Positions 42,098 to 62,525 of a stretch of DNA of 64,000 nt are shown here, piece after piece. The DNA is from Hydrurus foetidus (taxonomy: Eukaryota). Location: the NCBI GenBank assembly GCA_900617105.1, contig UYFQ01000001.1:2914001-2978000 (forward strand), written 5' to 3'. Positions within the stretch are counted from its first letter, which is position 1. Each line of letters opens with the position of its first letter. The position numbers and the translations under genes were made by a program. Under the pieces are notes generated by a model. That model saw only the letters and a list, made by a program, of their open reading frames with translations. It made no database searches and was not told the DNA's origin.

Positions 42098-42395
42098 CAC
42101 GCTATTTTTTTTATAGCTGCTTGCGCCCGATTTTATTGACCTACAGGTCAAAAGGGCATGTAAATAGACGTTACACTGAAATTGTTGAAGTATTAATGCA
42201 GTGGTGCAATGTTCAGCTCATCCCTTTTTGGGGTGTTAAAAAGCCACGAATTTTGCAACTAATACGCAAAATAAGGCCGTCAAACCACGTGCTTGGCGCC
42301 GGATTTTTCACTAAAACTGAACTTACCCGATAAACTTATAGCAGAGCCTTGCGCGACCAAAAAAACAGAGCGCTCGGCATTACCAAAGGCGAATC

Positions 42396-42830
42396 GTGTC
42401 ATCTGAGCTACTTCAAAAGTACAAGCAATTTTTTCAAGTCGACGGCCGTGACGTCATGGAAACGCTCGACCGCTTGCCGCAAGCGGCGTTTGACGACTTG
42501 CCAATTGGCGCTGTGCTGCTCAATGACAAAGCCAAAATCGTGAAATACAACCGCACCGAGGGCGAGTTGACCAACCGCGACCCGCAGCGCGTGATGGGCG
42601 CCGGGTTTTTTATGGAACTCGCCGTGTGCGGAGTCAGCGAGCAATTTCAAGGCCGCTTTAAAAGCGCACTCAAAGCCATGTCGTTTGACCAGATGTTTCC
42701 GTTCGTGTACTTTCATGAAATGCCAGAAACCCCGATGATGGTGCGAATTACCAAACCGCGCGTGGCCATGGCATCGCCGCACGTGTGGATTTTGGTGCGG
42801 CGAGTCATGCCGCCGGTTCCACAAAATTAA
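42396..42830 (+). CDS. pyp: Photoactive yellow protein homologue (PYP-1)
   Basis: DDLPIG, YNRTEG, TNRDP, FF...AVC, WILVRRV: equivalents of Y42, E46, T50, R52, C69 and M100 of H. halophila PYP retained. Confidence 0.8.
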   Translation: MSSELLQKYKQFFQVDGRDVMETLDRLPQAAFDDLPIGAVLLNDKAKIVKYNRTEGELTNRDPQRVMGAGFFMELAVCGVSEQFQGRFKSALKAMSFDQMFPFVYFHEMPETPMMVRITKPRVAMASPHVWILVRRVMPPVPQN

Positions 42831-42882
42831 TTTTTCGACTTTTGCTATTTTGCAAATATAAGTTTTCACTCAGGCATCCAGC

Positions 42883-43647
42883 ATGGAACACATTAGCTTT
42901 GAAGGCGTCAATTTGGCAGAACTGCTGCCGCGCATTCCCGATTCGATAAAAGACGGCTTACCGTTTGGCTTGGTCAAGCTTGATTTAACTGGCAAGATTC
43001 TGGAATACAACATGGCCGAAGGCGACCTGACCGGCGTCGACCCAAACTGGGCGCTAGGCAAAAACTTCTTCGATGAGGTTGCCCTGTGCACAAAAACTGC
43101 TGCGTTTTATGGCCGCTTTGTTGAAGGCGTGAAAAAAGGCTTTTTGAACTGTGTGTTTGACTACACCTTTGACCACCGCGACGAGGGCACCAAAGTCAAA
43201 GTGCACATGGTCACGATTCCCAATCATCTGGGCCAGCAAACCGTGATGATTTTGGTCAAGCGTGCCAACAAACCCTTGGTGCAAGAGGCGTTTGCCACCG
43301 AGGCACTGCGCGTTGATTATGCGAACAACGACCCCACCCGAGCTTCACCACTCGCTTACAACCAGGCGCCTGCAATGGCAGCGGCTACTGCGGAAGCACC
43401 GTCCATCAACGACATCGTGGCGGCAGTGATTGCGGCCATGAATGGCGGCATGAATGCAGCCCCGCCGGCTGCAAGACCTGCGCCGGCAGCACCTGCCATG
43501 CCAGCTTACGTGCCGCCTGCGCCAACCTCTGCGGCACCAGCACCAGCACCAGCACCAGCGCAAGCACCAGCACCAGCGCAAGCGCAAGCATCTGCGCCTT
43601 CAGCGCTCACAAGCGGCTCACGCCACCAAGACATTTTGAAGTTTTAA
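42883..43647 (+). CDS. pyp: Photoactive yellow protein with long Ala/Pro-rich C-terminal tail (PYP-2)
   Basis: Residues 1-109 colinear with H. halophila PYP (MEHISF, DGLPFG, YNMAEG, GKNFF, ALCT, FDYTFD, TKVKVHM); Y42, E46 and C69 present. Confidence 0.92.
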   Translation: MEHISFEGVNLAELLPRIPDSIKDGLPFGLVKLDLTGKILEYNMAEGDLTGVDPNWALGKNFFDEVALCTKTAAFYGRFVEGVKKGFLNCVFDYTFDHRDEGTKVKVHMVTIPNHLGQQTVMILVKRANKPLVQEAFATEALRVDYANNDPTRASPLAYNQAPAMAAATAEAPSINDIVAAVIAAMNGGMNAAPPAARPAPAAPAMPAYVPPAPTSAAPAPAPAPAQAPAPAQAQASAPSALTSGSRHQDILKF

Positions 43648-43689
43648 CGACCGTTAGCCAGCGAGTCGACGTCGCCACCTTCAATTGCC

Positions 43690-44937
43690 GTGAACGCACT
43701 GACAATTTCGCCGGACGACCTGCTTCGGGTGTGCCGGGACTTGGCATGGTCTGAAATTTCGACTATGCCAGGGCTTTCGGCTCGCTTGGGGTCGCGTATT
43801 TCCCCACAAAGTGATGTTGATTGGTCGGCAACAGGCTTGGCACTTGATTCACTGGCCCGCATACAACTGGCCACTGCTGCCGCCACCTGGTGCAACGCTT
43901 ACGACGCGGGTTTTGAAGACCTGTTTTTAGCCAAACGCAGCGCAGCCGACTGGGCTGCAGTGATGCTGCGCGCCAGAGCAAGCGGCGCTGCAAACTTCAC
44001 GTTTGCTACGTCAGGCAGCACCGGCGCACGAAAGCACATTCGCCACCGGGAAGACGTGCTGAGCAACGAGGCTCAGGCCTGGGCAACCGTGCTCAGCGCC
44101 GTCGATGCCAATGCGGGCAACAGTGCCAGCACGCCACCTACGGTGAACCGCGTAGTGGTGCTGGCACCCACGCACCATATTTATGGCTTTATCTGGGGCG
44201 TGTTGTTGCCGTTGGCGCTCGGTGTGCCAGCGATTGACGCAGACTTTGCTGACCTGCCTGAGTTGCTTCCAGGCGACTTGCTGATTGCCGTGCCCGACCA
44301 ATGGGCCTGGTTGGCTAGATCTGCCAAGGCGTGGCCCGCGGGCGTTCAAGGTATTTCGTCTACCGCGCCGCTGGCAGACGACGTTCATCGGCAGTTGATA
44401 GACAAGCGCACTGGCAATTTGCCAGCGCCGCTGGCCCGGTTGCTGCAAATTTATGGCTCCAGCGAAACCGCCGGGCTGGCCTGGCGCAGCGACCCGGTTC
44501 AGCCCTACACCCTGGCGCCCGGCCGAACCCGCACCGCGCAGGGCGGCATTGAGCTACTGTTGCCCACCGGCGCGCAAGCCGCCATGCCAGTGCAGGACGA
44601 TTTGCAGTGGACCAGCGATTGGGCGTTTCAGTTGCTGCGGCGTGTAGACAACAGCGTACAGGTGGGCGGGCATAACGTGTCTCCAGACTGGGTTGCACAA
44701 CAACTCATGACGCACAGCGCAGTAAAAGCCGCAGCGGTGAGGCTAGACACGCTGCTGACGCCGCCTCGGCTGAAAGCGTATGTCTTACTTCACTCGCCAG
44801 CAGACGCAGAGCAAAAACGAGGTCTGGAGACTTGGGCTCTGGACACTTTGCCAGCTCATGCCCAGCTGGCCAGTGTGACTTATGGCGATGCACTGCCGCA
44901 GAACGCGATGGGTAAACCCAGTGACTGGCCAACCTAA
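43690..44937 (+). CDS. 4-coumarate-CoA ligase, PYP-activation type
   Basis: TSGSTGARK, HHIYGF, YGSSETAG, VQVGGHNV, NAMGK; N-terminal LDSL segment; directly after the pyp genes. Confidence 0.88.
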   Translation: MNALTISPDDLLRVCRDLAWSEISTMPGLSARLGSRISPQSDVDWSATGLALDSLARIQLATAAATWCNAYDAGFEDLFLAKRSAADWAAVMLRARASGAANFTFATSGSTGARKHIRHREDVLSNEAQAWATVLSAVDANAGNSASTPPTVNRVVVLAPTHHIYGFIWGVLLPLALGVPAIDADFADLPELLPGDLLIAVPDQWAWLARSAKAWPAGVQGISSTAPLADDVHRQLIDKRTGNLPAPLARLLQIYGSSETAGLAWRSDPVQPYTLAPGRTRTAQGGIELLLPTGAQAAMPVQDDLQWTSDWAFQLLRRVDNSVQVGGHNVSPDWVAQQLMTHSAVKAAAVRLDTLLTPPRLKAYVLLHSPADAEQKRGLETWALDTLPAHAQLASVTYGDALPQNAMGKPSDWPT

Positions 44938-45018
44938 ACAAATTAAACTTACGCATGCCAGCCGTGGCCGATTAGCCGGTATGGGGCAATGTAAAAGCCA
45001 GTTCGAGGTCGCAGGCTT

Positions 45019-46038
45019 TTAACCTGCCAGCGAAATACCCAAGCGAGCCCGAATACGCGCAAACAAGCCAGACGACCGGGCAGGCACAGGCTGCGTTTTT
45101 GCAGACTCGACTTTGAGCAAAGACGATGGCGAAGCAGCGGTGGGGTACGCAGGGGAGTGCCGGTGCAGCGCGACATTGTCAGCCGCAGGCAAAACAATAG
45201 GCGTCACAGACAAAAATCCGGACGCATGCAAGTCCTGCACAAAAGCAGCGCAGTCTGGCATCGGCTGGCCGGAAGTGCGTTGCAAGCTTTCGATAGAGTT
45301 GCTACCGCTGGCTATAAACGCCGCCAGCTTAAGCCTCAGCGGCGTGTTGATTAAATTAGCGTGTGGCCATCGCAACATATGCAGCCTGTCAGTCGATGCT
45401 ACCTGCGTCATTATGGTGACGATCACGTCCTTCTTAATCTCTTTCACGGGTTGGGCTGCCGCCACTGGCGCATCGACCAGCGTCGACTTCGGCAGAGTGG
45501 CCACGGCAGTTCCCGCAAATGCAACTCCCGATTTGTCGGTGGGCACGAACTCTGAATGGGTGCTGCCATTTACCGGCAATTGCCACAGGTAAAGAGGCTT
45601 GGCATCATTGACGCTTTCCGGTTGGCTACTTGCGGCATAGGCGTTGTCACCGACACCTGAGTGAATGCCTAGGTTGAAGTTATTAGCCGATCGCATGCGC
45701 GCCACCACAAGCAGCTTGCCCATGCGGTTGAGTTTGCGCTCCAGCTCATCTGGCCGCAGCGGCCGGTCAAGTTTGGTATAGGTATCCAATGCCAGCAGGC
45801 CCAGTCGCAGCGGTCGGGGGCCGGGCCCGGCTATGCCGCTGGCATCAACTGCCTCGCCTTCATCTCCCAAAAATGTCAGGTCAGCCGCTTGCTGCTCGCC
45901 TGCATCAGGTTGGGCTTTGAAAATCCAGCGCTGTTTGGTTCGGCTGTCCAGTATGCGGACAAAAGATTTGAGCAGCATTGCCTCGCGCGCGGCCATGCCC
46001 ATGACACTAAAAGTAAAGGAGGTACGGCCGGGATTCAT
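45019..46038 (-). CDS. Hypothetical adaptor protein B (paralogue of 49149-49880)
   Basis: GMAAREAMLLKSFVRILD...QRWIF, LRWP...LKLAAFI...LQRTS, ends GLFARIRARLGI. Confidence 0.75.
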   Translation of the reverse strand: MNPGRTSFTFSVMGMAAREAMLLKSFVRILDSRTKQRWIFKAQPDAGEQQAADLTFLGDEGEAVDASGIAGPGPRPLRLGLLALDTYTKLDRPLRPDELERKLNRMGKLLVVARMRSANNFNLGIHSGVGDNAYAASSQPESVNDAKPLYLWQLPVNGSTHSEFVPTDKSGVAFAGTAVATLPKSTLVDAPVAAAQPVKEIKKDVIVTIMTQVASTDRLHMLRWPHANLINTPLRLKLAAFIASGSNSIESLQRTSGQPMPDCAAFVQDLHASGFLSVTPIVLPAADNVALHRHSPAYPTAASPSSLLKVESAKTQPVPARSSGLFARIRARLGISLAG

Positions 46039-46079
46039 TGCTTTGGGGCTTTGGGGCTTGGGTCTTTGGAGCTTGGGCG

Positions 46080-46892
46080 TTAAACGTTTTCGCCCGAAAG
46101 TGCGGGTGCGGCGGCAACCACTGGCGGAGCCTGTGGATGTTGAATGCCAACAAAGTGCGTCACCGTGCCCGCAGCATCGCGCACCGGCGAGATGAACAAC
46201 TGATTCAAAAACAACGAGCCGTCTTTGCGGTAGTTGCGTAGAGAGGCAAAGCCATTTGTTTGCGCCTTGATGGCACTGCGAATGATTTCAATACCAGGCT
46301 GGTCTTTGTCGGTGCCTTGCAAAAACCGGCAATTGCGCCCCAAAATTTCGCTCGACGCATAGCCGCTCATGTGCTCGAACATGGTGTTCACAAAAACAAT
46401 CGGCATGTCCGGTGCGCGCGCGTCTGAAATCACCACGCCCGCATTCAGGGCCTGCCACTGACGCCTGAACGGCTCGGAATCGACTTGTTGCTGCGCTTCG
46501 ATCAACTGGGTGATGTCAGTGATAGCGATGACTTTGTAAGTGCCGCGCATTTCGCTGCGAACGGTGCTGAACTTCAGCAAAAGGTGACGCGGAAGGCCGT
46601 CGATCTTGGCAGGCCTGATCAGCGGAAAGTCGCCATGGCAATCTGGTGCGTCGAGCGTTTTTGCCACCTCGCTTGAAAAGCCCAGTGCCTGCAAGAGCGC
46701 TGCAAACGGCTGACCCAGCGTGAGAAGAGCGTCAACACCCAGCAGCGCCGCTGCTTTAGGGTTAAACATGGCGACGCGCGATTTGTCGTCCACCACGCAC
46801 AAGCCCATACCGGCACCTTGGAGCCAATCAAGTAGCAAAGTGTTCTCGAACGCTTCGTTGCTTTCGGCTGAAATAAGTTTGTTACTAGTCAT
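46080..46892 (-). CDS. PAS-LOV blue-light sensor B, no output domain
   Basis: N-terminal PAS, then PIVFVN, GRNCRFLQG, NYRKDG, FVGIQ; ends about 18 aa later. Confidence 0.92.
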   Translation of the reverse strand: MTSNKLISAESNEAFENTLLLDWLQGAGMGLCVVDDKSRVAMFNPKAAALLGVDALLTLGQPFAALLQALGFSSEVAKTLDAPDCHGDFPLIRPAKIDGLPRHLLLKFSTVRSEMRGTYKVIAITDITQLIEAQQQVDSEPFRRQWQALNAGVVISDARAPDMPIVFVNTMFEHMSGYASSEILGRNCRFLQGTDKDQPGIEIIRSAIKAQTNGFASLRNYRKDGSLFLNQLFISPVRDAAGTVTHFVGIQHPQAPPVVAAAPALSGENV

Positions 46893-47250
46893 GACCCGTG
46901 GATGCTAATGCGCACAGCCTTAATTGGCATTTAAGCGTGTTCAATTTATTCAAGATGTGAGTAGAAGTTTGCAATACACAATTGCATATCAACGAAAATC
47001 CAACATGGTTTGGGCATGTACAGCAACAAAGCCAAGCGACAGGAAGCAGTGTTGCGGTGCAATCGGCTGTCTGCCGGCGCTTGATTTGCGATGCGCGTTG
47101 CTCACCCGTACCACAGCATTATTGCTTTGCATTTCAAGCGGCGAGCTGCCGTGAACTACAACCGCACAACATTGAGGTGACTGATTTGCAACGCGGCTCA
47201 GCTTAAAACTTTCAGGTTTTACCCAAGTGCGCACGTAGGGAGTTATTGTT

Positions 47251-47610
47251 TTAAACAGACAGTTCTTTTTCGACCTCTTGCACCTTGCGGCGCGCCAAAG
47301 CCAAATTTGACTTGGCTTTGTCGAGCACGATGTAGATAAACAGGCCTTCTTTGCGAGCCATCGGGCGAATGATGTGGTATTGCTTGCCCAGGGTGATCAA
47401 AATGTCTTCAATCACGTCTGACAGGCCGAGCGCGCGCATGGTTTTCATTTTGGCGCGAACCACTTCGGTGTTGCCAGCGGCAGCCACTTCCATGTCAACA
47501 CCTGAGCCAATTTGGCCCAAAATCATGCCGCTGCTGGAGTCAACCAGGCAGGCGCACAGGGCGCCGTCACAGGTCAAAAGTTCTTGCATTGCTTGGTTAA
47601 TCGTTGCCAT
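47251..47610 (-). CDS. Roadblock/LC7-like protein
   Basis: 119 aa; DGALCACLVDSSSG, AAAGNTEVV, IEDILITL, NLALAR. Confidence 0.75.
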   Translation of the reverse strand: MATINQAMQELLTCDGALCACLVDSSSGMILGQIGSGVDMEVAAAGNTEVVRAKMKTMRALGLSDVIEDILITLGKQYHIIRPMARKEGLFIYIVLDKAKSNLALARRKVQEVEKELSV

Positions 47611-47717
47611 TAAAAATCTCCAAAAATCAAAAAGAAAACGCCGAAAAGAAAAACTGCTTGCGTGGCGCTCAAACGCAAGCTGCTGAAAACTCACCTCAAA
47701 ACAGTTTTTTTAACCCA

Positions 47718-48122
47718 CTACCGCTGCTGTGCCAACCCCGCCGGTGTCGGGCGCGACTGTGCCAACACGCGGCGCAGTGCTTCTACATGTGCGCCCCACG
47801 GGCCCCAAGCCATGTCGCCTTTGGCAGCAACGCACACCAGCACCAGGCCGGGGTCGTCGCAGCACGGGAACAGCGCCACTACCCGGTTAGCAAACGAATA
47901 AGCCGCTGACTGCAGGCCGCCCAAAGCCGTCAGCTGTGATGCCAGCCGGTCTTTAATGCGCCAAAATTCAATGGCGGTTTCGCCAATGCGCTCAATCTCA
48001 GGGCTGGCCCCAGCGAAATGCCAGGCCATGCCGGTGGCGGTTTCAACCAGCGCACAGCCATCAATGCCGGGGTAAGTGGCAAGAGTTTGCAAATGTGCGA
48101 CGACTGCTGCACTGTTGGGCAT
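47718..48122 (-). CDS. Roadblock/LC7-like (divergent) protein
   Basis: PGIDGCALVETATG matches the N-terminal pattern of the neighbouring roadblock-like protein. Confidence 0.6.
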   Translation of the reverse strand: MPNSAAVVAHLQTLATYPGIDGCALVETATGMAWHFAGASPEIERIGETAIEFWRIKDRLASQLTALGGLQSAAYSFANRVVALFPCCDDPGLVLVCVAAKGDMAWGPWGAHVEALRRVLAQSRPTPAGLAQQR

Positions 48123-48162
48123 ATTCAAATCGTTTTAGTGACGCGTCAAGGCACTTCGGCCG

Positions 48163-48546
48163 CTACGCCGCTTGCAAGGCAGCCGCTGCCTTTTTTGAGT
48201 AGTACAGCACCTGGCCGACCACTGCGTCGGCTCCCGCTACGGTGCTGACAATCAACGATACATCGTCTCGGTGCACCTGCACAATGACGATGTACCCGCC
48301 AGCGGCTTCCAGCACCACGCTGCGGCACACCCCTAACTGACTTTCTTCGCCCGCCATGGCGCCCAGCGCCGCGAGCGAGCTGGCCATGGCCGACAAGCGG
48401 GCAATTTGTGCGGTGTTTTCAACCCGAGCAGCAACTTCAAAACCGTCTTCAGTGGAAATAACCACAGCTTTGATGCCTTTGACCTCTTGCATCAGGTCGT
48501 TCAAGGCCGCGTCGCAGGCGCGCTGCAAGCTTGCATCTATCTCCAT
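48163..48546 (-). CDS. Roadblock/LC7 (MglB-like) protein
   Basis: GIKAVVISTEDGF, LSAMASSL, VVLEAAGG, VGQVL. Confidence 0.88.
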   Translation of the reverse strand: MEIDASLQRACDAALNDLMQEVKGIKAVVISTEDGFEVAARVENTAQIARLSAMASSLAALGAMAGEESQLGVCRSVVLEAAGGYIVIVQVHRDDVSLIVSTVAGADAVVGQVLYYSKKAAAALQAA

Positions 48547-48547
48547 A

Positions 48548-49105
48548 TCACTGGGTCTCCGCTTTGGTTTCTAGTTGCAGCAGCAGCAGTTCGAGCAACT
48601 GCGTAACCTGCGCGGCGTCCCGCACATCTGCAGCCAGTACCGGGCACAAAATGCCGCGTGCCGCCAGGTGGTCTGAAAACTGCTCTAGGTCTGGGCTGGC
48701 GTGCGTTTCGGTGCGGCCCACGGCCACCACGCAAGCGGTGTCTTTGATCAGCTGCTTGAACCCGTCGACATACATGTCGAGGTCGGCCAGGGGGTCAGGC
48801 TGACGGTTGTCGATCAATATGATCAGGCCCAACGCACCTTTAGACAAAATCTTCCACATAAAGTCAAAGCGCTTTTGGCCTGGCGTGCCGTACAGGCGCA
48901 ACTTGTCGCCGCCTTCCAGCGTGACTTCGCCGTAGTCCATGCCCACAGTCGTCATTTCTTTGGACAGGCCAGAATCGTTATTGCGCACGTCGGTGGACAT
49001 GGGCGGAATCTCGCTCACCTGCCCGATAGCCGTAGTTTTACCCGCCCCGGTGGTGCCGCTAAAGAGTATTTTGTGTTCAATCATTACAAATTGGTTTTGC
49101 AACAT
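48548..49105 (-). CDS. MglA/CvnD-like small GTPase
   Basis: GTTGAGKTT (P-loop), TTVGMDYG, LYGTPGQKRFDFMW; alternative start at 49084. Confidence 0.92.
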   Translation of the reverse strand: MLQNQFVMIEHKILFSGTTGAGKTTAIGQVSEIPPMSTDVRNNDSGLSKEMTTVGMDYGEVTLEGGDKLRLYGTPGQKRFDFMWKILSKGALGLIILIDNRQPDPLADLDMYVDGFKQLIKDTACVVAVGRTETHASPDLEQFSDHLAARGILCPVLAADVRDAAQVTQLLELLLLQLETKAETQ

Positions 49106-49148
49106 TGTGGGGCAAGGCCGAGTACTTTCGGCGTCTGCTCGCTAATTT

Positions 49149-49880
49149 TCAGACGTTGTGTGAACTTTTAATACCTAAACCAGCCCGAATGCGGTCGAGC
49201 AACCCCGGTTTGGCAAACGCAACTGCAGCGCTGGGCAAGTTGAGTATTTCATGCGGCCCTGGGGTACGTTCTTGCGCCGTGTTGATCAGCAATTTGGCGT
49301 TTTGCAAGTCTGTTGTGAATGCGCGGCAAATCGCCAAAGGCAAAGCAGAGCGGCGTTGTAACTCATTTAAGCTTAGCGCTCGCCCTGACAAAAGTGTAGC
49401 CAGGCGCATGCGGCCCGTGCCGGCCAAAAATTTTGACGGTGGCCATTGTTTCAGTCGAAAAAGTTGCTCGCCGTCGCTGTAGTTCTCTAGCGCTTTGTTC
49501 GCAGCCATGAACGACGCGCTGCTGCTGGTGGCCTGATGCGGAATCGCCTGGCCGCCAACCCGGTTCAATTCAGCAGCCAGCTTGTTATGCTGTATTGGCC
49601 AGGACAGGTGCATGGCTCGCTCGTTGCCTGTACCGACTGACAACACCGGCTGAGCCTCTGGGTGATAGTGCTTGTAAAGGGTGGGCGGGTACCACTCGGC
49701 TACCACCAGCAAATCAACCCGAAAGTCCGCTGTTGCGGGGCGGTAAATCCATTTTTGATTGGTGACGTGGTCCAGCAAGAGCACGAAAGACTTGAACAGC
49801 GCTTCTTCGCGCGAGGACATGCCCTCCAGCGAAAAGCTGAGCTTGGTGCGATCGAAATCGGTGGAGGGAAAACCGGGCAT
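49149..49880 (-). CDS. Hypothetical adaptor protein A (probable C-terminal winged helix)
   Basis: GMSSREEALFKSFVLLLD...QKWIY, FRLKQWP...MRLATLL...LQRRS, ends GLLDRIRAGLGI. Confidence 0.75.
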   Translation of the reverse strand: MPGFPSTDFDRTKLSFSLEGMSSREEALFKSFVLLLDHVTNQKWIYRPATADFRVDLLVVAEWYPPTLYKHYHPEAQPVLSVGTGNERAMHLSWPIQHNKLAAELNRVGGQAIPHQATSSSASFMAANKALENYSDGEQLFRLKQWPPSKFLAGTGRMRLATLLSGRALSLNELQRRSALPLAICRAFTTDLQNAKLLINTAQERTPGPHEILNLPSAAVAFAKPGLLDRIRAGLGIKSSHNV

Positions 49881-49893
49881 GAGCCGTTACCGA

Positions 49894-50679
49894 TCAGCGT
49901 TCTGTTTGATTGTTTTCGAGGTGCTGGATCCCAACAAAGTGGGTAACCACCCCGTTGGCGTCTTTGACCGGCGATATAAACAGTTCATTGACAAACAAGC
50001 TGCCGTCTTTTCGGTAATTGCGCAGCTTGGCATAACCATTGGTTTGCGTGCTGATTGCGGTTCGAATGGCTGCCAAGCCCGGCTGGTGAGGCTCAGTGCC
50101 TTGCAAAAACCGGCAATTGCGCCCCAACACTTCGCTTGAGGCATAACCGCTCATTTGTTCGAACATAGGGTTGACATAAACGATCGGCATGTTTGGCTGG
50201 CGTGCGTCCGAGATAACCACCCCCGCATTAAGCGCCTGCCATTGGCGGCGATAAGATTCCGAGTCGACCTGGCGCTGCGCCTGCAGCAGCTCGGTAATGT
50301 CGGTAATCGCTATCATTTTGAATTTGTCAAAGTCCGCGTGGGCAGCCGCCGATATGCCGGTGGCTCTGAACAGCAGCTCAACTTTTTTGCCGCGGCGCAA
50401 ACAGGCAGCATGGCGCTGGCCATGAAAGCTCATCCGGGCCAGCCAGTCGACCACGCCGGGTTCAAAATCAACAGCCTGCACGGCCTGGGCGAAGGGCTGG
50501 TTTAAAACATCGACACCCACCACACCCAGCATGGCGCAAGCCGCACGGTTCAACATCACGACCAAGCCGGCGTTGTCAATGGCGCACAAACCTACATCAG
50601 CGGAGCTGAGCCACGCTGTCAGCAACGCGTGCTCTAGCTGATCGTTGCTCTTTAAAGTTGCCGCCGCCTGATTGCTCAT
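49894..50679 (-). CDS. PAS-LOV blue-light sensor A, no output domain
   Basis: N-terminal PAS, then PIVYVN, GRNCRFLQG, NYRKDG, FVGIQ; ends 9 aa later. Confidence 0.92.
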   Translation of the reverse strand: MSNQAAATLKSNDQLEHALLTAWLSSADVGLCAIDNAGLVVMLNRAACAMLGVVGVDVLNQPFAQAVQAVDFEPGVVDWLARMSFHGQRHAACLRRGKKVELLFRATGISAAAHADFDKFKMIAITDITELLQAQRQVDSESYRRQWQALNAGVVISDARQPNMPIVYVNPMFEQMSGYASSEVLGRNCRFLQGTEPHQPGLAAIRTAISTQTNGYAKLRNYRKDGSLFVNELFISPVKDANGVVTHFVGIQHLENNQTER

Positions 50680-50949
50680 GCTTGTCCCCTCTTTCTCATT
50701 TGCGACTCATTGTGTCTGTAAACAACGCTTTTCAAATGACAACTCGCTGTTCAGCGATATTTTTAGTTCTTTTGAAGTAAGGCGCGTCTCTCCTTCACAA
50801 CGTATGCATAGGATTATTTTAATTATGCGAAATGTCTTTTTTTAAATTTTTTAATGTTCGTCTTTTAAAAGATTGACACAGTTACCATCTAGCGCAGTCA
50901 GTTTTACGCAAAACAAAAATATTCCGGCATCAACTCACCTTCGCCCGCG

Positions 50950-51552
50950 ATGACCGCCAAAGGAACTTTGCTTTACGTCCGCACCCCGCAAGGCCGAGCC
51001 GTAGCGTTCACGCCCGATGCAAAACTGTCGCCAAAACTGAAGGCGATGCTCAAGGCAGTCGACGGAAAAGTCAGTGTGGCCGAGTTGGTGGTGCAGTTTG
51101 CAGATGCAGACGCGTCAGACTTGTTAGGCCAGCTGGACGTCGCTGGGCTGATTAAACTGCGGGAAGACCGCTCAACTGATTTTCAAAACGACGCTGCTGC
51201 GCGGATCACACAGCCAGCAGCACAGATTGCCGACTTTGCCCCCACAGACGCCGGTCTGCTAGAACCGCTTTCGGCAAGTGCGATGGCAAATAGCCCGCCA
51301 GCCGCCAAGCAGCAGTCGGCTAGGGTCAACACCGGCTTGGCCCTGATTGTTGATGTCATGTCTACGTTTGTGCTGACTCACTTGCCGCAGCAGGCCTTTA
51401 CGGTGCTGGCCAAGCTTGAAGGCTTTAAAACGCTCGCTGAGCTGGAAGCCGAGCTGCCTGACTATTCAATGCTGGCCAAAGCTTCTGGCCCAGCAGGTGT
51501 GGTGCACCTGGCAGAGCTCACTGAACGCATGCGCGAAGCGGCTGCGGCTTAG
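50950..51552 (+). CDS. Hypothetical protein, possible N-terminal winged helix
   Basis: Clean 200-aa ORF; LKAVDGKVSVAEL...LGQLDVAGLIKL pattern; divergent from LOV-A. Confidence 0.65.
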   Translation: MTAKGTLLYVRTPQGRAVAFTPDAKLSPKLKAMLKAVDGKVSVAELVVQFADADASDLLGQLDVAGLIKLREDRSTDFQNDAAARITQPAAQIADFAPTDAGLLEPLSASAMANSPPAAKQQSARVNTGLALIVDVMSTFVLTHLPQQAFTVLAKLEGFKTLAELEAELPDYSMLAKASGPAGVVHLAELTERMREAAAA

Positions 51553-53369: not shown

Positions 53370-53559
53370 TTGCCGGGTTAGCTACTGGCGTCTACGCCGG
53401 AGTCATAACAGGCTCACCACGGGCGCGACTAGCTATTGAATTAATAGCTGCTCGCGCCCGTATTTATTGGCTTCTAAGATTTTTAGCCCTTTCAGAATCT
53501 GTTTTAGCGGATTTTTCAGGCTTTTTTCGGAGGGTTAACCGCTGCTTAAACGCTTAATC

Positions 53560-58160: not shown

Positions 58161-61100
58161 ATGCCACAAGGAATGCGCTATCGATTGGCTCTGGATTTGG
58201 GCTCAACATCACTTGGCTGGGCGATGATTCGGCTGAACGCTGCCAATTCTCCCGTGGCAGTGATCAAGGCGGGGGTCAGGATATTTTCTGATGGCCGCAA
58301 CCCCAAAGACGGCTCGTCTCTAGCAGTCACGCGCCGCGAAGCGCGCGCCATGCGGCGCAGGCGTGATCGCATGCTCAAGCGCAAGGCGCGCATGATGCAG
58401 ACGCTGATAGCGCATGGCTTTTTTCCAAAGCTTGAAGCCGAACGCAAAGCGCTTGAGACATTGAACCCTTACACATTGCGCGCCAAAGGTTTGGACTCTG
58501 CTTTGAGCCCGGCAGAATTTGGCCGGGCACTGTTTCACATCACCCAGCGACGGGGCTTTAAGAGCAATCGTAAAACGGACAAAGGCGAGAACGACTCTAG
58601 CGCACTGAAAAACGCGATTAAAACGGTACGGGACAAATTACTGGCTACGGGTAGCCGCACTGTCGGTGAATGGTTACATAAGCGTGACGCCGCTGGCGAA
58701 ATGGTTCGCGCGCGTTACCGGGAGGAACGCGTCATTAAAGACAGCGGCAAACCCGGCATCAACAAAAGCTACGACCTTTACATTGACCGCGCAATGATTG
58801 AGGCGGAGTTTGATGCGCTTTGGTCTGCCCAGGCGGCTTTTAACTCTGGGCTTTTCAACATTACTGCTCGCGACGAGTTAAAAGACGCTTTGCTTTTTCA
58901 ACGTCCGCTAAAGCCAGTCATCCCAGGCCGCTGCACGCTATTGCCGGACGAGATGCGAGCGCCGCTGGCGCTGCCCAGTACGCAGCGTTTTCGTATTTAT
59001 CAGGAACTGGCCAATTTGCGGATCTTGGGCGATGGGCTGAAAGAACTTGCACTGACGCTTGAACAGCGCAACAAGTTGGCTAACGCGCTTGAAACTGGTC
59101 ACAAGAGTTTCAAAACGGCTATTCCCAAATTGCTCGGCCTTAGCGGTTCAGTCAAGTTCAACCTGGCAGATGCCAAACGGCTTGAACTCAAAGGTAACGT
59201 TACCTGCGCCATTTTGAGCAAGAAGGATTTGTTCGGCGATGACTGGTGGGGCTTTGACGAGACCAAACAAGACGCGATCGTTTGGCAACTGGTTAAAGAA
59301 GAAAACGAGGCCAAGCTTATTGCGTGGCTGCAAAGTGAAACGGGCGTGGACGAAGCACAAGCTGAAAAGCTGGCCGATGTCGCATTACCTGAAGGCTACG
59401 GCAGCTTGAGCGCCAAAGCACTCGCACGCATACTGCCAGAGCTGCGCCGTGAAGTCACGACCTACGACAAAGCCGTGATTGCCGCTGGCTTTGACCACCA
59501 CAGCAACATCAGCGCCGCAGCTACGGGGGAAATATTGCCTGAGTTGCCCTACTACGGCGAAGCGTTGCAACGCCACGTTGGTTTTGGTACGGGCAAGCTG
59601 GATGACACACCTGAACAGCGCTTTGGCCGCATTGCGAACCCGACCGTACACATTGGTTTGAACCAGGTGCGCCTGGTGGTGAACGCACTGATCAAACGCT
59701 ATGGTCACCCAAGCCAGGTGATTGTGGAGGTAGCACGAGATTTAAAGCGCAGCAAAGACCAGAAAGACGAAGACAGCAAACGCCAAGCAGAGAACCAGCG
59801 GCGAAACGAACGTCACCGCAGGCTGATTGCAGGTATTTTGAACATCAGTGAAGAAAGGGTTCGTGGCGCTGATTTGCAAAAAATGGTCTTATGGGAAGAG
59901 CTGAGTTTTGACCCGGCAGAGCGGCGCTGTCCGTATTCAGGCGTACAAATCAGCGCTGCCATGCTTTTGAGTGATGAGGTAGAGATTGAGCATATCTTGC
60001 CGTTTTCACAAACACTGGACGACAGCCTGAACAATAAAACCGTATCGATGCGACATGCCAACCGTTACAAAGGCAACCAAACGCCGTGGGACGCGTTTGG
60101 CAAAAACCAGGTGCAAGGGTTTGACTATGCAGCCATATTGCAGCGCGCTGAACTGATGCCACGTGCAAAGCGCAGCCGCTTTGCAGAAGACGGCATGGCG
60201 CGTTGGCTCAAAGACGACAAAGGCTTTTTGGCCCGCGCGTTGAACGACACTAAATATTTGAGCAAAGTAGCGCGCGAATACATGAGCCTGATTTGCCCAC
60301 AAGACACACGCGTGATTCCCGGCCAGATGACCGCCATGCTGCGCGGTAAGTTTGGTTTGAACGATGTACTCGGCATCAACGGTGAAAAAAACCGCAATGA
60401 CCACCGGCATCATGCCGTGGATGCGTGTGTGATTGGTGTGACCGATCAAGGATTGCTTAAAAGGTTTGCAGATGCGAGTGCTAGCGCTCGTGAAAGACAG
60501 CTCAATCGGTTGGTTGAAAACATGCCTGATCCCTGGCCAACCTACAGGGCGCATGTGCAGCTTGCAGTTAGCCATATTTGGGTGAGCCACAAACCGGACC
60601 ATGGATATGAAGCTGGGATGCATGAAGATACGGCTTATCGGCCGCCGTATCTTGACCCTAAAAACATGTGGCGAACGCGGGGAATCGGTGGTGCAAAGCC
60701 AAACGAAAAGAAGCATGACTCTGACGCAATCGTTGCAATGCATGGCGATGCAAACACAAACCGCCACGCTCTAAATAAGGAAGGAGTTGCGCTTCCCTAC
60801 AAAGGTTATGTTGGCGGCAGTAACTATTGCATCGAGATAACCTGTGGTGAAAAGGGCAAGTGGATTAGTCGAGTGATTTCAACATACGCGGCATACCAAA
60901 TAGTACGATCACAGGGCATCGAAGGCTTGCGACATACACATATTGCGCAAGACGGAGAGCCGCTTGTTATGCGCTTGAGCATCGGGGATGGGGTTCGACT
61001 TGAAATAAATGACGATAGGAAGACCTATCGAGTTGCGTATATTCCCAGCAACGGGCAGGTATTTATGGCCCCGATAAACGAAGCAAACGTTGATGCGAGA

Positions 61101-61226
61101 AATAGCGATAAATCTGATCCATTTGCCTACATTTCAAAGACTGCTGGTTCATTGCAAAAGGCCAAAGCCCGCCGCGTCACCATCTCACCCATCGGCGAAC
61201 TCAACGACCCCGGCTTCAAGGAGTAA
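58161..61226 (+). CDS. cas9: Type II-C CRISPR endonuclease Cas9 (1021 aa)
   Basis: RuvC-I LALDLGSTSLGW, Arg-rich bridge helix, RRGF, RuvC-II VEVARD, HNH EIEHILPFS...N...N, RuvC-III HHAVDA. Confidence 0.97.
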   Translation: MPQGMRYRLALDLGSTSLGWAMIRLNAANSPVAVIKAGVRIFSDGRNPKDGSSLAVTRREARAMRRRRDRMLKRKARMMQTLIAHGFFPKLEAERKALETLNPYTLRAKGLDSALSPAEFGRALFHITQRRGFKSNRKTDKGENDSSALKNAIKTVRDKLLATGSRTVGEWLHKRDAAGEMVRARYREERVIKDSGKPGINKSYDLYIDRAMIEAEFDALWSAQAAFNSGLFNITARDELKDALLFQRPLKPVIPGRCTLLPDEMRAPLALPSTQRFRIYQELANLRILGDGLKELALTLEQRNKLANALETGHKSFKTAIPKLLGLSGSVKFNLADAKRLELKGNVTCAILSKKDLFGDDWWGFDETKQDAIVWQLVKEENEAKLIAWLQSETGVDEAQAEKLADVALPEGYGSLSAKALARILPELRREVTTYDKAVIAAGFDHHSNISAAATGEILPELPYYGEALQRHVGFGTGKLDDTPEQRFGRIANPTVHIGLNQVRLVVNALIKRYGHPSQVIVEVARDLKRSKDQKDEDSKRQAENQRRNERHRRLIAGILNISEERVRGADLQKMVLWEELSFDPAERRCPYSGVQISAAMLLSDEVEIEHILPFSQTLDDSLNNKTVSMRHANRYKGNQTPWDAFGKNQVQGFDYAAILQRAELMPRAKRSRFAEDGMARWLKDDKGFLARALNDTKYLSKVAREYMSLICPQDTRVIPGQMTAMLRGKFGLNDVLGINGEKNRNDHRHHAVDACVIGVTDQGLLKRFADASASARERQLNRLVENMPDPWPTYRAHVQLAVSHIWVSHKPDHGYEAGMHEDTAYRPPYLDPKNMWRTRGIGGAKPNEKKHDSDAIVAMHGDANTNRHALNKEGVALPYKGYVGGSNYCIEITCGEKGKWISRVISTYAAYQIVRSQGIEGLRHTHIAQDGEPLVMRLSIGDGVRLEINDDRKTYRVAYIPSNGQVFMAPINEANVDARNSDKSDPFAYISKTAGSLQKAKARRVTISPIGELNDPGFKE

Positions 61227-61231
61227 CCAGC

Positions 61232-62161
61232 ATGATTGGCCGCATCGTTGAGGTGGCCGATGACAGGCGGCACCTGTTGCTGCATCGCGGCTTTATGGTG
61301 GTGCGCGACTCGGAGGGTGCACGCAAAGAGCTGGGGCAAATCCCACTCGACGACATTACCGCCGTTATAGCCAACGCGCATGGCTTGAGCTACACCAACA
61401 ACCTGCTGGTGGCTTTGGCCGAACGTGGTGCACCGTTTGTGCTGTGTGCGGCTAACCACAACGCAGTCGGCATGCTGCTGCCGATTGAAGGCAATTTTGA
61501 GCAGTCCAAACGCATTGAGGCGCAAATTGCTGCCAGCCAGCCGACGCACAAACGTTTGTGGGCGAGTGTGGTGCGCGCAAAACTTGAGCAACAAGCCGCC
61601 GCACTTGCCGCGACTGGCGGCCCCACCGCACCGTTAACTGCACTTGCGGCGAGAGTTAAAAGCGGCGACCCTGAAAACTTGGAAGCGCAAGGCGCGCGCC
61701 GTTACTGGACGCTGCTGTTTGGCGATACCTTCAGGCGTGACCAAAATGCGGGCGGCACCAATGGCTTGCTGAATTACGGCTACACCGTGCTGCGCGCCAC
61801 AACCGCGCGTGCTGTTGTGGCGGCTGGGCTGCACCCCGGCATTGGCTTGCACCACAGCAACGACAACAACGCCATGCGCCTGGTCGATGACCTGATGGAG
61901 CCTTTCCGGCCGATGATTGATTTGAAGGTGTGGCAGCTCAAACGCAACGGTGAAAACGAAGTGAGCCCCGAGACCAAACGCGCATTGGTGCGCACGCTGT
62001 ATGACGACATGCAAACCGACGCGGGTGCCACGCCTGTGATGGTGTGTGCACAAAAGTTGTGCACGTCATTGGCGCAAGTCTATTTGGGTGAACGGGACAA
62101 GCTGGACTTGCCTTTGCCCGGCTTGCCGCTGGCGCTGGCTGCGGCGCTGGGCGACGAATAA
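61232..62161 (+). CDS. cas1: CRISPR-associated Cas1 (type II)
   Basis: NLEAQGARRYW, NGLLNYGY, GLHH, LVDDLMEPFRP. Confidence 0.96.
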   Translation: MIGRIVEVADDRRHLLLHRGFMVVRDSEGARKELGQIPLDDITAVIANAHGLSYTNNLLVALAERGAPFVLCAANHNAVGMLLPIEGNFEQSKRIEAQIAASQPTHKRLWASVVRAKLEQQAAALAATGGPTAPLTALAARVKSGDPENLEAQGARRYWTLLFGDTFRRDQNAGGTNGLLNYGYTVLRATTARAVVAAGLHPGIGLHHSNDNNAMRLVDDLMEPFRPMIDLKVWQLKRNGENEVSPETKRALVRTLYDDMQTDAGATPVMVCAQKLCTSLAQVYLGERDKLDLPLPGLPLALAAALGDE

Positions 62162-62198
62162 GCAGCGGTGCTACGGAGATTTTTATGGAGGTGTGTGC

Positions 62199-62525
62199 AT
62201 GCTTTCAGGGTACCGACTCATGTGGGTAGTGGTGATGTTTGACTTGCCAGTCGTTGAAAAAGTTGAACGCAAGGCAGCGACTGACTTTCGCAACGGCTTG
62301 CTTGACCACGGTTTTGCCATGTCGCAGTTTTCGGTCTACATGCGGTTTTGCACAAGCCAGGCGCAGGTTGATACGTTATGCAAAAAGGTAGAAAATGCGT
62401 TACCACTGGGCGGCAAAGTAAACGTGCTGCAATTTACCGACAAGCAGTACGAGCGCATCATTTCGTACCACGGCCAAGCCAAGCAGCCTGCAAATAAAGC
62501 GCCAGATCAGTTCGACCTTTTTTAG
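62199..62525 (+). CDS. cas2: CRISPR-associated Cas2
   Basis: MWVVVMFDLPV, FRNGLL, QFSVY, TDKQY. Confidence 0.95.
   Translation: MLSGYRLMWVVVMFDLPVVEKVERKAATDFRNGLLDHGFAMSQFSVYMRFCTSQAQVDTLCKKVENALPLGGKVNVLQFTDKQYERIISYHGQAKQPANKAPDQFDLF

Follow-up and report, generated by a model that had tools for sequence, protein, structure and literature searches.

A predicted PAS-LOV photoreceptor gene joined to an MglA Group 3 GTPase module in Polaromonas-like DNA

Introduction

A 64,000-nucleotide stretch of contig UYFQ01000001.1 (assembly GCA_900617105.1, deposited under Hydrurus foetidus; positions 2,914,001 to 2,978,000 of the forward strand), hereafter the window, holds two photoactive yellow protein (PYP) genes with a p-coumarate:CoA ligase gene, two PAS-LOV genes, and a small GTPase gene with three roadblock genes, all within some 9 kb. 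Which of these putative light sensors, if any, acts on the GTPase? A sequence-only reading had all four photoreceptors replacing the sensor kinase of a conservon-like system and feeding the GTPase by direct contact. We report that the core of the locus, judged by its motifs, DUF architecture and downstream roadblocks, is an MglA Group 3 system. This module is already known (Wuichet and Sogaard-Andersen 2014, PMC4316618) and the new part is the PAS-LOV gene, so that the PAS-LOV-coupled system is a new variant of a described module. From gene context, folds and motifs we propose, with a probability of roughly one half, that the LOV protein feeds the GTPase through the receiver-like and winged-helix protein encoded next to it, here called the adaptor.

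Results

The GTPase module has the marks of MglA Group 3

In the accessible parts of PMC4316618, Group 3 is defined by threonine in place of the G2 arginine and a GTPGQ form of G3 (both common to Groups 2-5), a deviant G4 that lacks the lysine and is not NxFD, and a DAR-like G5. Its text and supplement 3 give the gene order as DUF>MglA>MglB(>MglB) with no kinase, describe the DUF as a receiver-like part, a variable linker and a winged helix, and tabulate Pnap_0367 of Polaromonas naphthalenivorans as one such locus. The window GTPase has the G1 motif GTTGAGKT, TT in G2 (EMTTVG), LYGTPGQ in G3, a deviant G4 (region VGRTE, with neither NKxD nor NxFD) and DVR in G5, and it matches Pfam ATP_bind_1 (E 4e-12). 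Its relatives begin MAEHKILF; its own likely start is at 49084.

The three downstream genes were taken from the outset to be roadblocks, and this identification fits. Roadblock 1 (RB1) matches Pfam Robl_LC7 (E 2e-6). The AlphaFold model of RB2 (pLDDT 91.7) adopts a roadblock fold, with a TM score of ~0.7 to MglB and LAMTOR2; Foldseek matched it at E 3e-7 to 2e-5 to these two and to a Streptomyces roadblock. HHalign relates RB3 to RB2 as a homologue (probability 90.5, E 1e-6), and the best PDB match of RB3 is a Roadblock/LC7 protein, at a weak E of 0.17. HHalign gave no significant alignment of RB1 with RB3 (probability 0.6) and a weak one with RB2 (12); the common fold is therefore assigned from Pfam for RB1, HHalign for RB3 against RB2, and Foldseek for RB2. 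Within the genus, 40 of 204 genomes yielded the GTPase, a tally that includes the unpublished G066, as did 37 of 401 within the family.

This assignment changes how the absence of a kinase is to be read. As first described, the region has no kinase, response regulator or cyclase gene: none occurs among 17 open reading frames (ORFs) in and around it scanned with Pfam, nor did a crude motif scan detect one in the whole window. Because Group 3 loci are listed without a kinase, however, no kinase had to be replaced. The comparison with conservons likewise finds no support, as the module has the Group 3 gene order and neither a CvnA kinase nor a CvnC/DUF742 protein. Some relatives do, even so, have a HisKA_3 kinase gene in the slot that LOV occupies here.

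The PAS-LOV family and its linkage to the module

Blue light causes LOV domains to form a cysteine-flavin adduct, an established chemistry that shows as a 450 to 390 nm photocycle and in which two asparagines and a glutamine contact the flavin. LOV-A and LOV-B both consist of a PAS and a LOV domain with no further domain (Pfam PAS_9/PAS and NCBIfam LOV models), and LOV-A matches solved LOV structures (E 1e-30). Both window copies carry the adduct cysteine within GRNCRFLQ as well as the Asn/Asn/Gln flavin contacts. Across the family alignment the cysteine is kept in 69 of 70 rows, and each asparagine and the terminal glutamine (Gln252) in 68. By motif and flavin contacts, LOV-A and LOV-B are predicted to be LOV photoreceptors, and LOV-B with adaptor B would be a second, older paralogous input pair.

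A survey with the family-specific N-terminal part of the protein yielded 22 GTDB loci, 17 of which contain the adaptor-GTPase module. Two others end at a contig edge, and the three exceptions are a pseudogene (L166), a LOV-B/adaptor-B pair without the GTPase (L171) and a lone LOV gene (L175). The module is also present at 7 of 10 metagenome loci, several of them near-identical, while the other 3 end early; L280 is a further LOV-linked module that the pattern scan missed. Spacing was assessed at 26 loci (the window, L003, 19 of the 22 GTDB and 5 of the 10 metagenome loci), with broken, cut and redundant ones excluded. The adaptor directly follows LOV for 28 of 29 complete PAS-LOV ORFs, at -4 to +63 nt, and stop and start codons overlap in 12 of these 28 pairs.

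The linkage extends beyond this genome, spanning several Comamonadaceae lineages and chromosomal sites. Genes upstream of the module fall into 11 unrelated families when internal genes are set aside; with local rearrangements merged, the LOV-linked modules appear to sit at about eight unrelated chromosomal sites. Their GTPases are 56-99% identical. A GTPase tree of 77 rows, all Group 3-like and with no Group 1, 2, 4 or 5 references, has 22 LOV-linked rows. These comprise the whole of a 16-row clade (starred in the tree, and including L003, where only the LOV end is visible, at the contig start), two small clades whose identity is 70-76%, and a single row at 56%. The GTPase is present in 11 of the 13 genomes of the genus Polaromonas that have this PAS-LOV. 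A sample of 400 other genomes from across the order yielded no member of the family, which appears restricted in distribution.

The LOV tree and the adaptor tree are largely congruent. Made from 28 pairs by a quick method, they have in common an A-type clade of 11 rows and a B clade, and each of them pairs the extra copy in L162 with L204. LOV and adaptor paralogues have duplicated together in the window and in L162. One genome, G128 (92% complete), has no GTPase match, and both of its LOV copies are broken.

Several variants of the locus were seen along the way. The broken copies of G128 lie at L258:6510-7100 and L259:6433-6620, one of them between a BLUF gene and the PYP-ligase-kinase run. 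Two tandem adaptors stand behind one LOV at L174:9956-12905, the whole module is tandemly duplicated in L136, and the modules of L244 and L246 have three RB3-type genes. A conserved ORF of 75-83 residues directly follows RB3 at L121:11684-11926, L122:11545-11793, L125:10372-10611 and L204:10774-10998; it was not called in the window. In L162 the BLUF gene before LOV adjoins topB and may be a resident gene.

The adaptor is a predicted pseudo-receiver with a winged helix

In an AlphaFold model, residues 11-122 of the adaptor adopt a receiver fold (Foldseek; VIA Z 10.6, rmsd 3.0, 106 residues aligned). The C-terminal part forms a winged-helix-like domain followed by a conserved LLxRIRxxLG motif, and the linker varies in length among relatives. 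At the phospho-acceptor position, assigned from the fold, 61 of 81 rows have alanine and 2 have aspartate, with glycine among the remaining residues; an acidic residue lies one position later in 71 of 81. The position of the receiver lysine, assigned in the same way, is tryptophan in 58 of 81 rows, so that Trp-Pro replaces Lys-Pro. The adaptor thus departs from a classical response regulator, which has a phospho-accepting Asp after beta-3, an acidic pair and a conserved Lys, and is best modelled as a non-phosphorylatable pseudo-receiver. It belongs to a large family, with 768 cluster representatives at E up to 0.001.

The photoreceptors had been described as lacking any DNA-binding or enzymatic output, and the adaptors, with receiver fold and winged-helix-like domain, now provide a candidate one. 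Weak matches link the helix domain to MarR, TrmB, IclR and ArsR helices. The DUF742 model PF05331 has no match in G001 or G077, nor with the window adaptors, and matches relatives only weakly. Specific homology to DUF742 was not demonstrable, as a profile search against solved structures was null and no DUF742 reference loci were found. The C-terminal helix is not claimed as a membrane anchor, since it lies outside the top four windows of a hydrophobic-moment scan.

Other sensor genes before the adaptor

LOV is not the only gene to take the position before the adaptor. At eight loci the gene directly in front of it encodes a HisKA_3 kinase (multi-PAS at the one locus scanned), and a divergent NarL-type regulator gene is present too. 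A more distant Group 3-like Polaromonas operon (L148:9112-13653 and L151:6339-10936) has a roadblock gene and, upstream, genes for a short PAS protein and one further protein. Because kinase or PAS genes also occupy the sensor slot, Group 3 looks like a switch with exchangeable inputs. The forks of the 77-row tree are open, and the order in which LOV and kinase came to the slot is unreadable from it.

A proposed route from light to the GTPase

Blue light likely controls the GTPase because LOV is predicted to bind the module's non-phosphorylatable adaptor. Light would form the Cys189-flavin adduct in LOV-A, and the PAS-LOV protein would then change its binding to the adaptor pseudo-receiver, by analogy with PixD, whose binding to PixE depends on light (PMC5812497, accessible part). 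The winged helix and C-terminal helix of the adaptor would in turn set the nucleotide state or the location of the GTPase, much as MfpC, a DUF742 protein, is the guanine-nucleotide exchange factor (GEF) for its own GTPase (PMC11343762 and PMC13621833, accessible parts), with the roadblocks acting as GTPase-activating protein or scaffold.

As the final output, type IV pilus surface motility or attachment is our leading guess, though a tentative one that we hold rather less likely than its failure. Five genomes with the LOV module have PilT-family ATPase genes over cut-off and no flagellin match. In Snodgrassella, which bears Group 3, mutation of an orphan mglB altered soft-agar motility that was read as dependent on type IV pili (PMC11112851, accessible part).

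A number of observations weigh against a LOV-adaptor-GTPase pathway. Kin genomes are not independent, the counts above are no statistical test, and the agreement of the two trees partly reflects shared descent. G084 (84% complete) has an intact LOV-B/adaptor-B pair, and the GTPase was not found in this genome; the L175 genome has an intact PAS-LOV, and neither adaptor nor GTPase was found there; L119 is without LOV-A and yet retains adaptor A. Moreover, 55 of the 77 Group 3 GTPase rows have no LOV, and because most Group 3 loci lack it the adaptor works without LOV. The adaptor's winged helix resembles DUF742 weakly and in a generic way (6 of 51, best E 0.0012; 1 of 127). Beside the module we noticed no pilus gene, and bacteria of this group commonly have type IV pili.

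Some of these observations suit another arrangement, in which LOV and adaptor form the functional unit, the winged helix binds DNA as a light-controlled regulator, and the GTPase is a modulator that runs in parallel or is dispensable. The pair duplicates without the GTPase in the window and in L162, G084 retains it where the GTPase was not found, the adaptor helices weakly resemble those of MarR, TrmB, IclR and ArsR, and a transcriptional role has been proposed for Group 3 (PMC4316618, accessible part). However, most invariant positions in the helix domain hold hydrophobic or structural residues, a helix-turn-helix protein works as a GEF in the related conservon (PMC11343762, accessible part), and LOV is nearly always retained with the whole module, not with the adaptor alone. 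We consider such a regulator unlikely, at about the level of a one-in-five chance in plain terms, and prefer the route through the GTPase.

The PYP cassette is probably a separate unit

PYP1 and PYP2 match solved PYPs (E 3e-20 and 7e-34, respectively) and retain the equivalents of Tyr42, Glu46 and Cys69; in L183, PYP1 has Phe at position 42. Neither of the window PYPs reaches the TIGR02373 cut-off of 143 (99.8 and 114.4), which weighs little since published PYP homologues likewise fall under it (PMC9664959, accessible part of the supplement). The ligase scores 252.6 against a cut-off of 334.7 on TIGR02372, its best-matching model. PYP2 has a 120-residue tail (window 43270-43647) with a conserved DIVxAV helix inside its Ala/Pro linker. 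All 16 full-length tandem-type copies besides that of the window have an EDILKF-type end, one of them as QDILQF, and the solo PYP2 copies in L263 and L264 are without the conserved tail.

The suspected two chromophore classes agree with the key residues, which both PYPs and both LOV copies keep. The PYP cassette, however, is only loosely linked to the module. Among 18 GTDB PYP2 loci, 4 adjoin the GTPase, 8 have a BLUF gene right after the ligase, 5 have neither (two of them on short or cut contigs), and one is on a short contig of a genome that bears a LOV-B/adaptor-B-ligase arrangement. Nine genomes with the cassette, all incomplete metagenome-assembled genomes, divide into six with no GTPase match and three with the module on another contig; a tenth genome, that of L175, stands outside these nine and has no known PYP cassette.

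Supply of the chromophore precursor was considered as well. A search for aromatic ammonia-lyases in five PYP-cassette genomes (81-94% complete) did not find tyrosine ammonia-lyase (TAL); three have only HutH, a histidine ammonia-lyase with the SH motif, beside urocanase, and two have nothing. Routes to p-coumarate other than TAL exist (PMC9664959, accessible part). The PYP1-PYP2-ligase cassette is probably a separate blue-light unit, often near other light-sensor genes and with its own partner.

It may be asked whether the whole region is instead a light-response island, in which LOV, PYP, BLUF and orfX genes are co-regulated or co-transferred and act on other partners, for example a multi-PAS HisKA_3 kinase with a NarL-type regulator, and do not physically engage the GTPase module. 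BLUF, rhodopsin-like, PYP and orfX genes do reshuffle around PAS-LOV loci. A GAF-PAS HisKA_3 kinase gene and a NarL-type regulator gene flank the module in L123, L204 and L205, lying in the latter two between the module and a ligase gene, and the G128 genes run PYP1-PYP2-ligase-kinase, the regulator being divergent. The island fits the PYP cassette well. Nevertheless, it leaves unexplained why LOV, at about eight sites, occupies the slot directly in front of the adaptor with codons that overlap, and why the two genes duplicate jointly. That kinase, moreover, has no full-length match in G001, G078, G132 or G077, which are PYP- or LOV-bearing relatives of the window, and only a partial one in G071. 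As an account of the region the island is improbable, and we retain the adaptor-mediated route for the LOV genes.

The proposal from which this work began, in which the two PYPs as well as the two LOV proteins would act on the GTPase through direct contact, is very unlikely. In its favour, the window and four relatives have the cassette converging on the module (in L120, one of the four, the position in the chromosome differs and LOV-B is absent), the ligase lies within 5 kb of the module in L204 and L205, the conserved free C-terminal tail of PYP2 could dock on a partner, and single-domain PYPs often act on or bind neighbours (PMC9664959, accessible part). Against it, twice as many PYP loci adjoin a BLUF gene as the GTPase, cassette and module lie on opposite strands, six incomplete genomes in which no GTPase was found have the cassette, the cassette of one genome runs into a histidine kinase gene, and no TAL was found in the five genomes searched. 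Little credence can accordingly be given to PYPs as an additional input beside LOV. The same low odds apply to a natural kinase-free, light-gated Ras-like switch with two chromophore classes, in which two PAS-LOV/adaptor pairs and a tail-docking PYP pair jointly determine the GTP state and thereby steer the polarity of type IV pili in non-flagellated stream bacteria.

Organization and source of the region

The region contains twelve intact ORFs, four on the plus and eight on the minus strand (Table 1). Eleven genes are present, intact and in the order first claimed, and folds, motifs and domain matches agree with their labels. The end of the range is less apt, as its last ORF, orfX, belongs to a separate uncharacterised family. 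From LOV-A to adaptor B the minus-strand gaps are 13, 64, 1, 40, 107, 358 and 41 nt, the longest separating RB3 from LOV-B. A scan for promoters and terminators stayed at chance level (6 vs 4.1 and 14 vs 15.2).

Table 1. Genes between window positions 42396 and 51552
Feature	Position	Strand	Remarks
PYP1, single-domain PYP homologue	42396-42830	+	GTG start, ATG in relatives
PYP2	42883-43647	+	PYP domain, Ala/Pro-rich linker with conserved DIVxAV helix, conserved [EQ]DILKF-type C-terminal tail
p-Coumarate:CoA ligase homologue, PYP-associated type	43690-44937	+	E 5e-75 on TIGR02372, under its cut-off
Adaptor B, paralogous pseudo-receiver/winged-helix protein (predicted), long linker	45019-46038	-	41 nt after LOV-B
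LOV-B, PAS-LOV paralogue	46080-46892	-	55% identical to LOV-A; own clade, support 100
RB3, roadblock 3, most conserved gene of the module	47251-47610	-	HHalign to RB2
RB2, roadblock 2, divergent	47718-48128	-	Likely start 48122; AlphaFold and Foldseek
RB1, roadblock 1, MglB-like, EDG aspartate-glycine pair	48163-48546	-	Pfam Robl_LC7; 1 nt after GTPase
MglA Group 3 small GTPase	48548-49084	-	Likely start 49084; frame open from 49105
Adaptor A, Group 3 'DUF'	49149-49880	-	Predicted pseudo-receiver ~11-122, winged-helix-like ~139-202, C-terminal LLxRIRxxLG; 13 nt after LOV-A
LOV-A, N-terminal PAS and LOV, no output domain	49894-50679	-	Cys189 in GRNCRFLQ
orfX, uncharacterised protein	50950-51552	+	Divergent from LOV-A; no Pfam or NCBIfam match

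The DNA is that of a freshwater Polaromonas-like bacterium. The nearest relatives of the GTPase come from Polaromonas metagenome-assembled genomes (identity up to 98%), and the nearest genome, G001, was used in place of the window's own. The GC content of the region resembles that of the rest of the window. Contigs of run X1, which may be the source sample, support the assembly at a depth of 1136-1193 over the region. Their main pieces agree with it letter for letter, and small gaps between the pieces are uncovered. Two RNA runs gave 0 and 2 reads, too few to bear on transcription. Related DNA is present in sediment and biofilm metagenomes, where record-title labels such as GFS or GL presumably denote glacier-fed streams.

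The orfX family, which forms unnamed Atlas clusters at 0.94, is possibly light-associated. It is not counted among the genes of the GTPase module, and HHalign gave no alignment of orfX with the adaptor helix domain (probability 1). Its homologues or look-alike neighbours adjoin BLUF, divergent PYP-like and LOV genes and genes that we take from their sequence to be rhodopsin-like (L184:649-2312, L188:6202-7924, L261:12402-14461, L267:1789-2358). Elsewhere in the window, a short repeat of ~38-55 nt lies between genes at ~42100-42165 and 53432-53486 and is present dozens of times in G001, and three ORFs at 58371-62522 resemble what we take to be cas9 (partial), cas1 and cas2.

Discussion

The arrangement was thought to be undescribed, and none like it was found in the open literature, subscription papers being beyond reach. 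With MglA Group 3 (PMC4316618) it shares the order DUF>MglA>MglB(>MglB), the receiver-like and winged-helix DUF, TT, GTPGQ, the deviant G4 and a DxR-type G5, and it adds a PAS-LOV gene before the DUF, a second LOV-DUF pair and three linked roadblocks. The Group 3 rows in the accessible part of supplement 3 of that paper, a table that marks selected neighbours only, list no photoreceptor. LOV, PYP and GTPases go unmentioned in the accessible main text of a 2026 preprint on Polaromonas.

Conservons (CvnABCD and MfpEDCB; MglA Group 2) likewise combine a sensor, a roadblock, a helix-turn-helix protein and a Ras-like GTPase with GTPGQ, but here there is no CvnA kinase, no NxFD in G4 and no DUF742 match over cut-off, and the sensor is a predicted soluble flavoprotein. 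The Group 1 MglA-MglB systems of Myxococcus and Thermus also pair a Ras-like GTPase with roadblock-fold partners, and RB2 superposes on MglB; the window GTPase differs in having no intrinsic arginine finger (TT not TR) and GTPGQ in place of TVPGQ, and no light input is known for Group 1.

The closest parallel to the proposed signalling is PixD-PixE of Synechocystis, where a blue-light receptor without an output domain acts on a non-phosphorylatable receiver protein and affects pilus motility, as is proposed here. That receptor is a BLUF and not a LOV protein, its partner is a PATAN-receiver and not a receiver-winged helix protein, and the accessible part of PMC5812497 describes no small GTPase in the pathway. 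The PYP cassette resembles the single-domain PYP of Halorhodospira with its pCL in Tyr42, Glu46, Cys69 and the adjacent CoA ligase, and departs from it in the tandem pair, the long PYP2 tail with its conserved end and the lack of a detected TAL in the five genomes searched. This Polaromonas PYP type was not found in the accessible supplement of PMC9664959; no such GTPase neighbourhood is listed there for Polaromonas, whose sole entry differs.

Group 3 MglA occurs in Neisseria, Xanthomonas, Stenotrophomonas, Acinetobacter and Comamonadaceae, and searchable papers leave its input, exchange factor and output undescribed. A member with a light input could be switched without chemicals, so that three or four small soluble proteins would suffice to test directly whether the adaptor is a GEF, a scaffold or a transcription factor. 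Should the LOV part of our proposal hold, it would be a natural photoreceptor acting on a bacterial Ras-like GTPase, a case without precedent in the literature searched and one that might supply optogenetic parts. Polaromonas and its relatives would also gain a route for responding to light in sediment and biofilm habitats.

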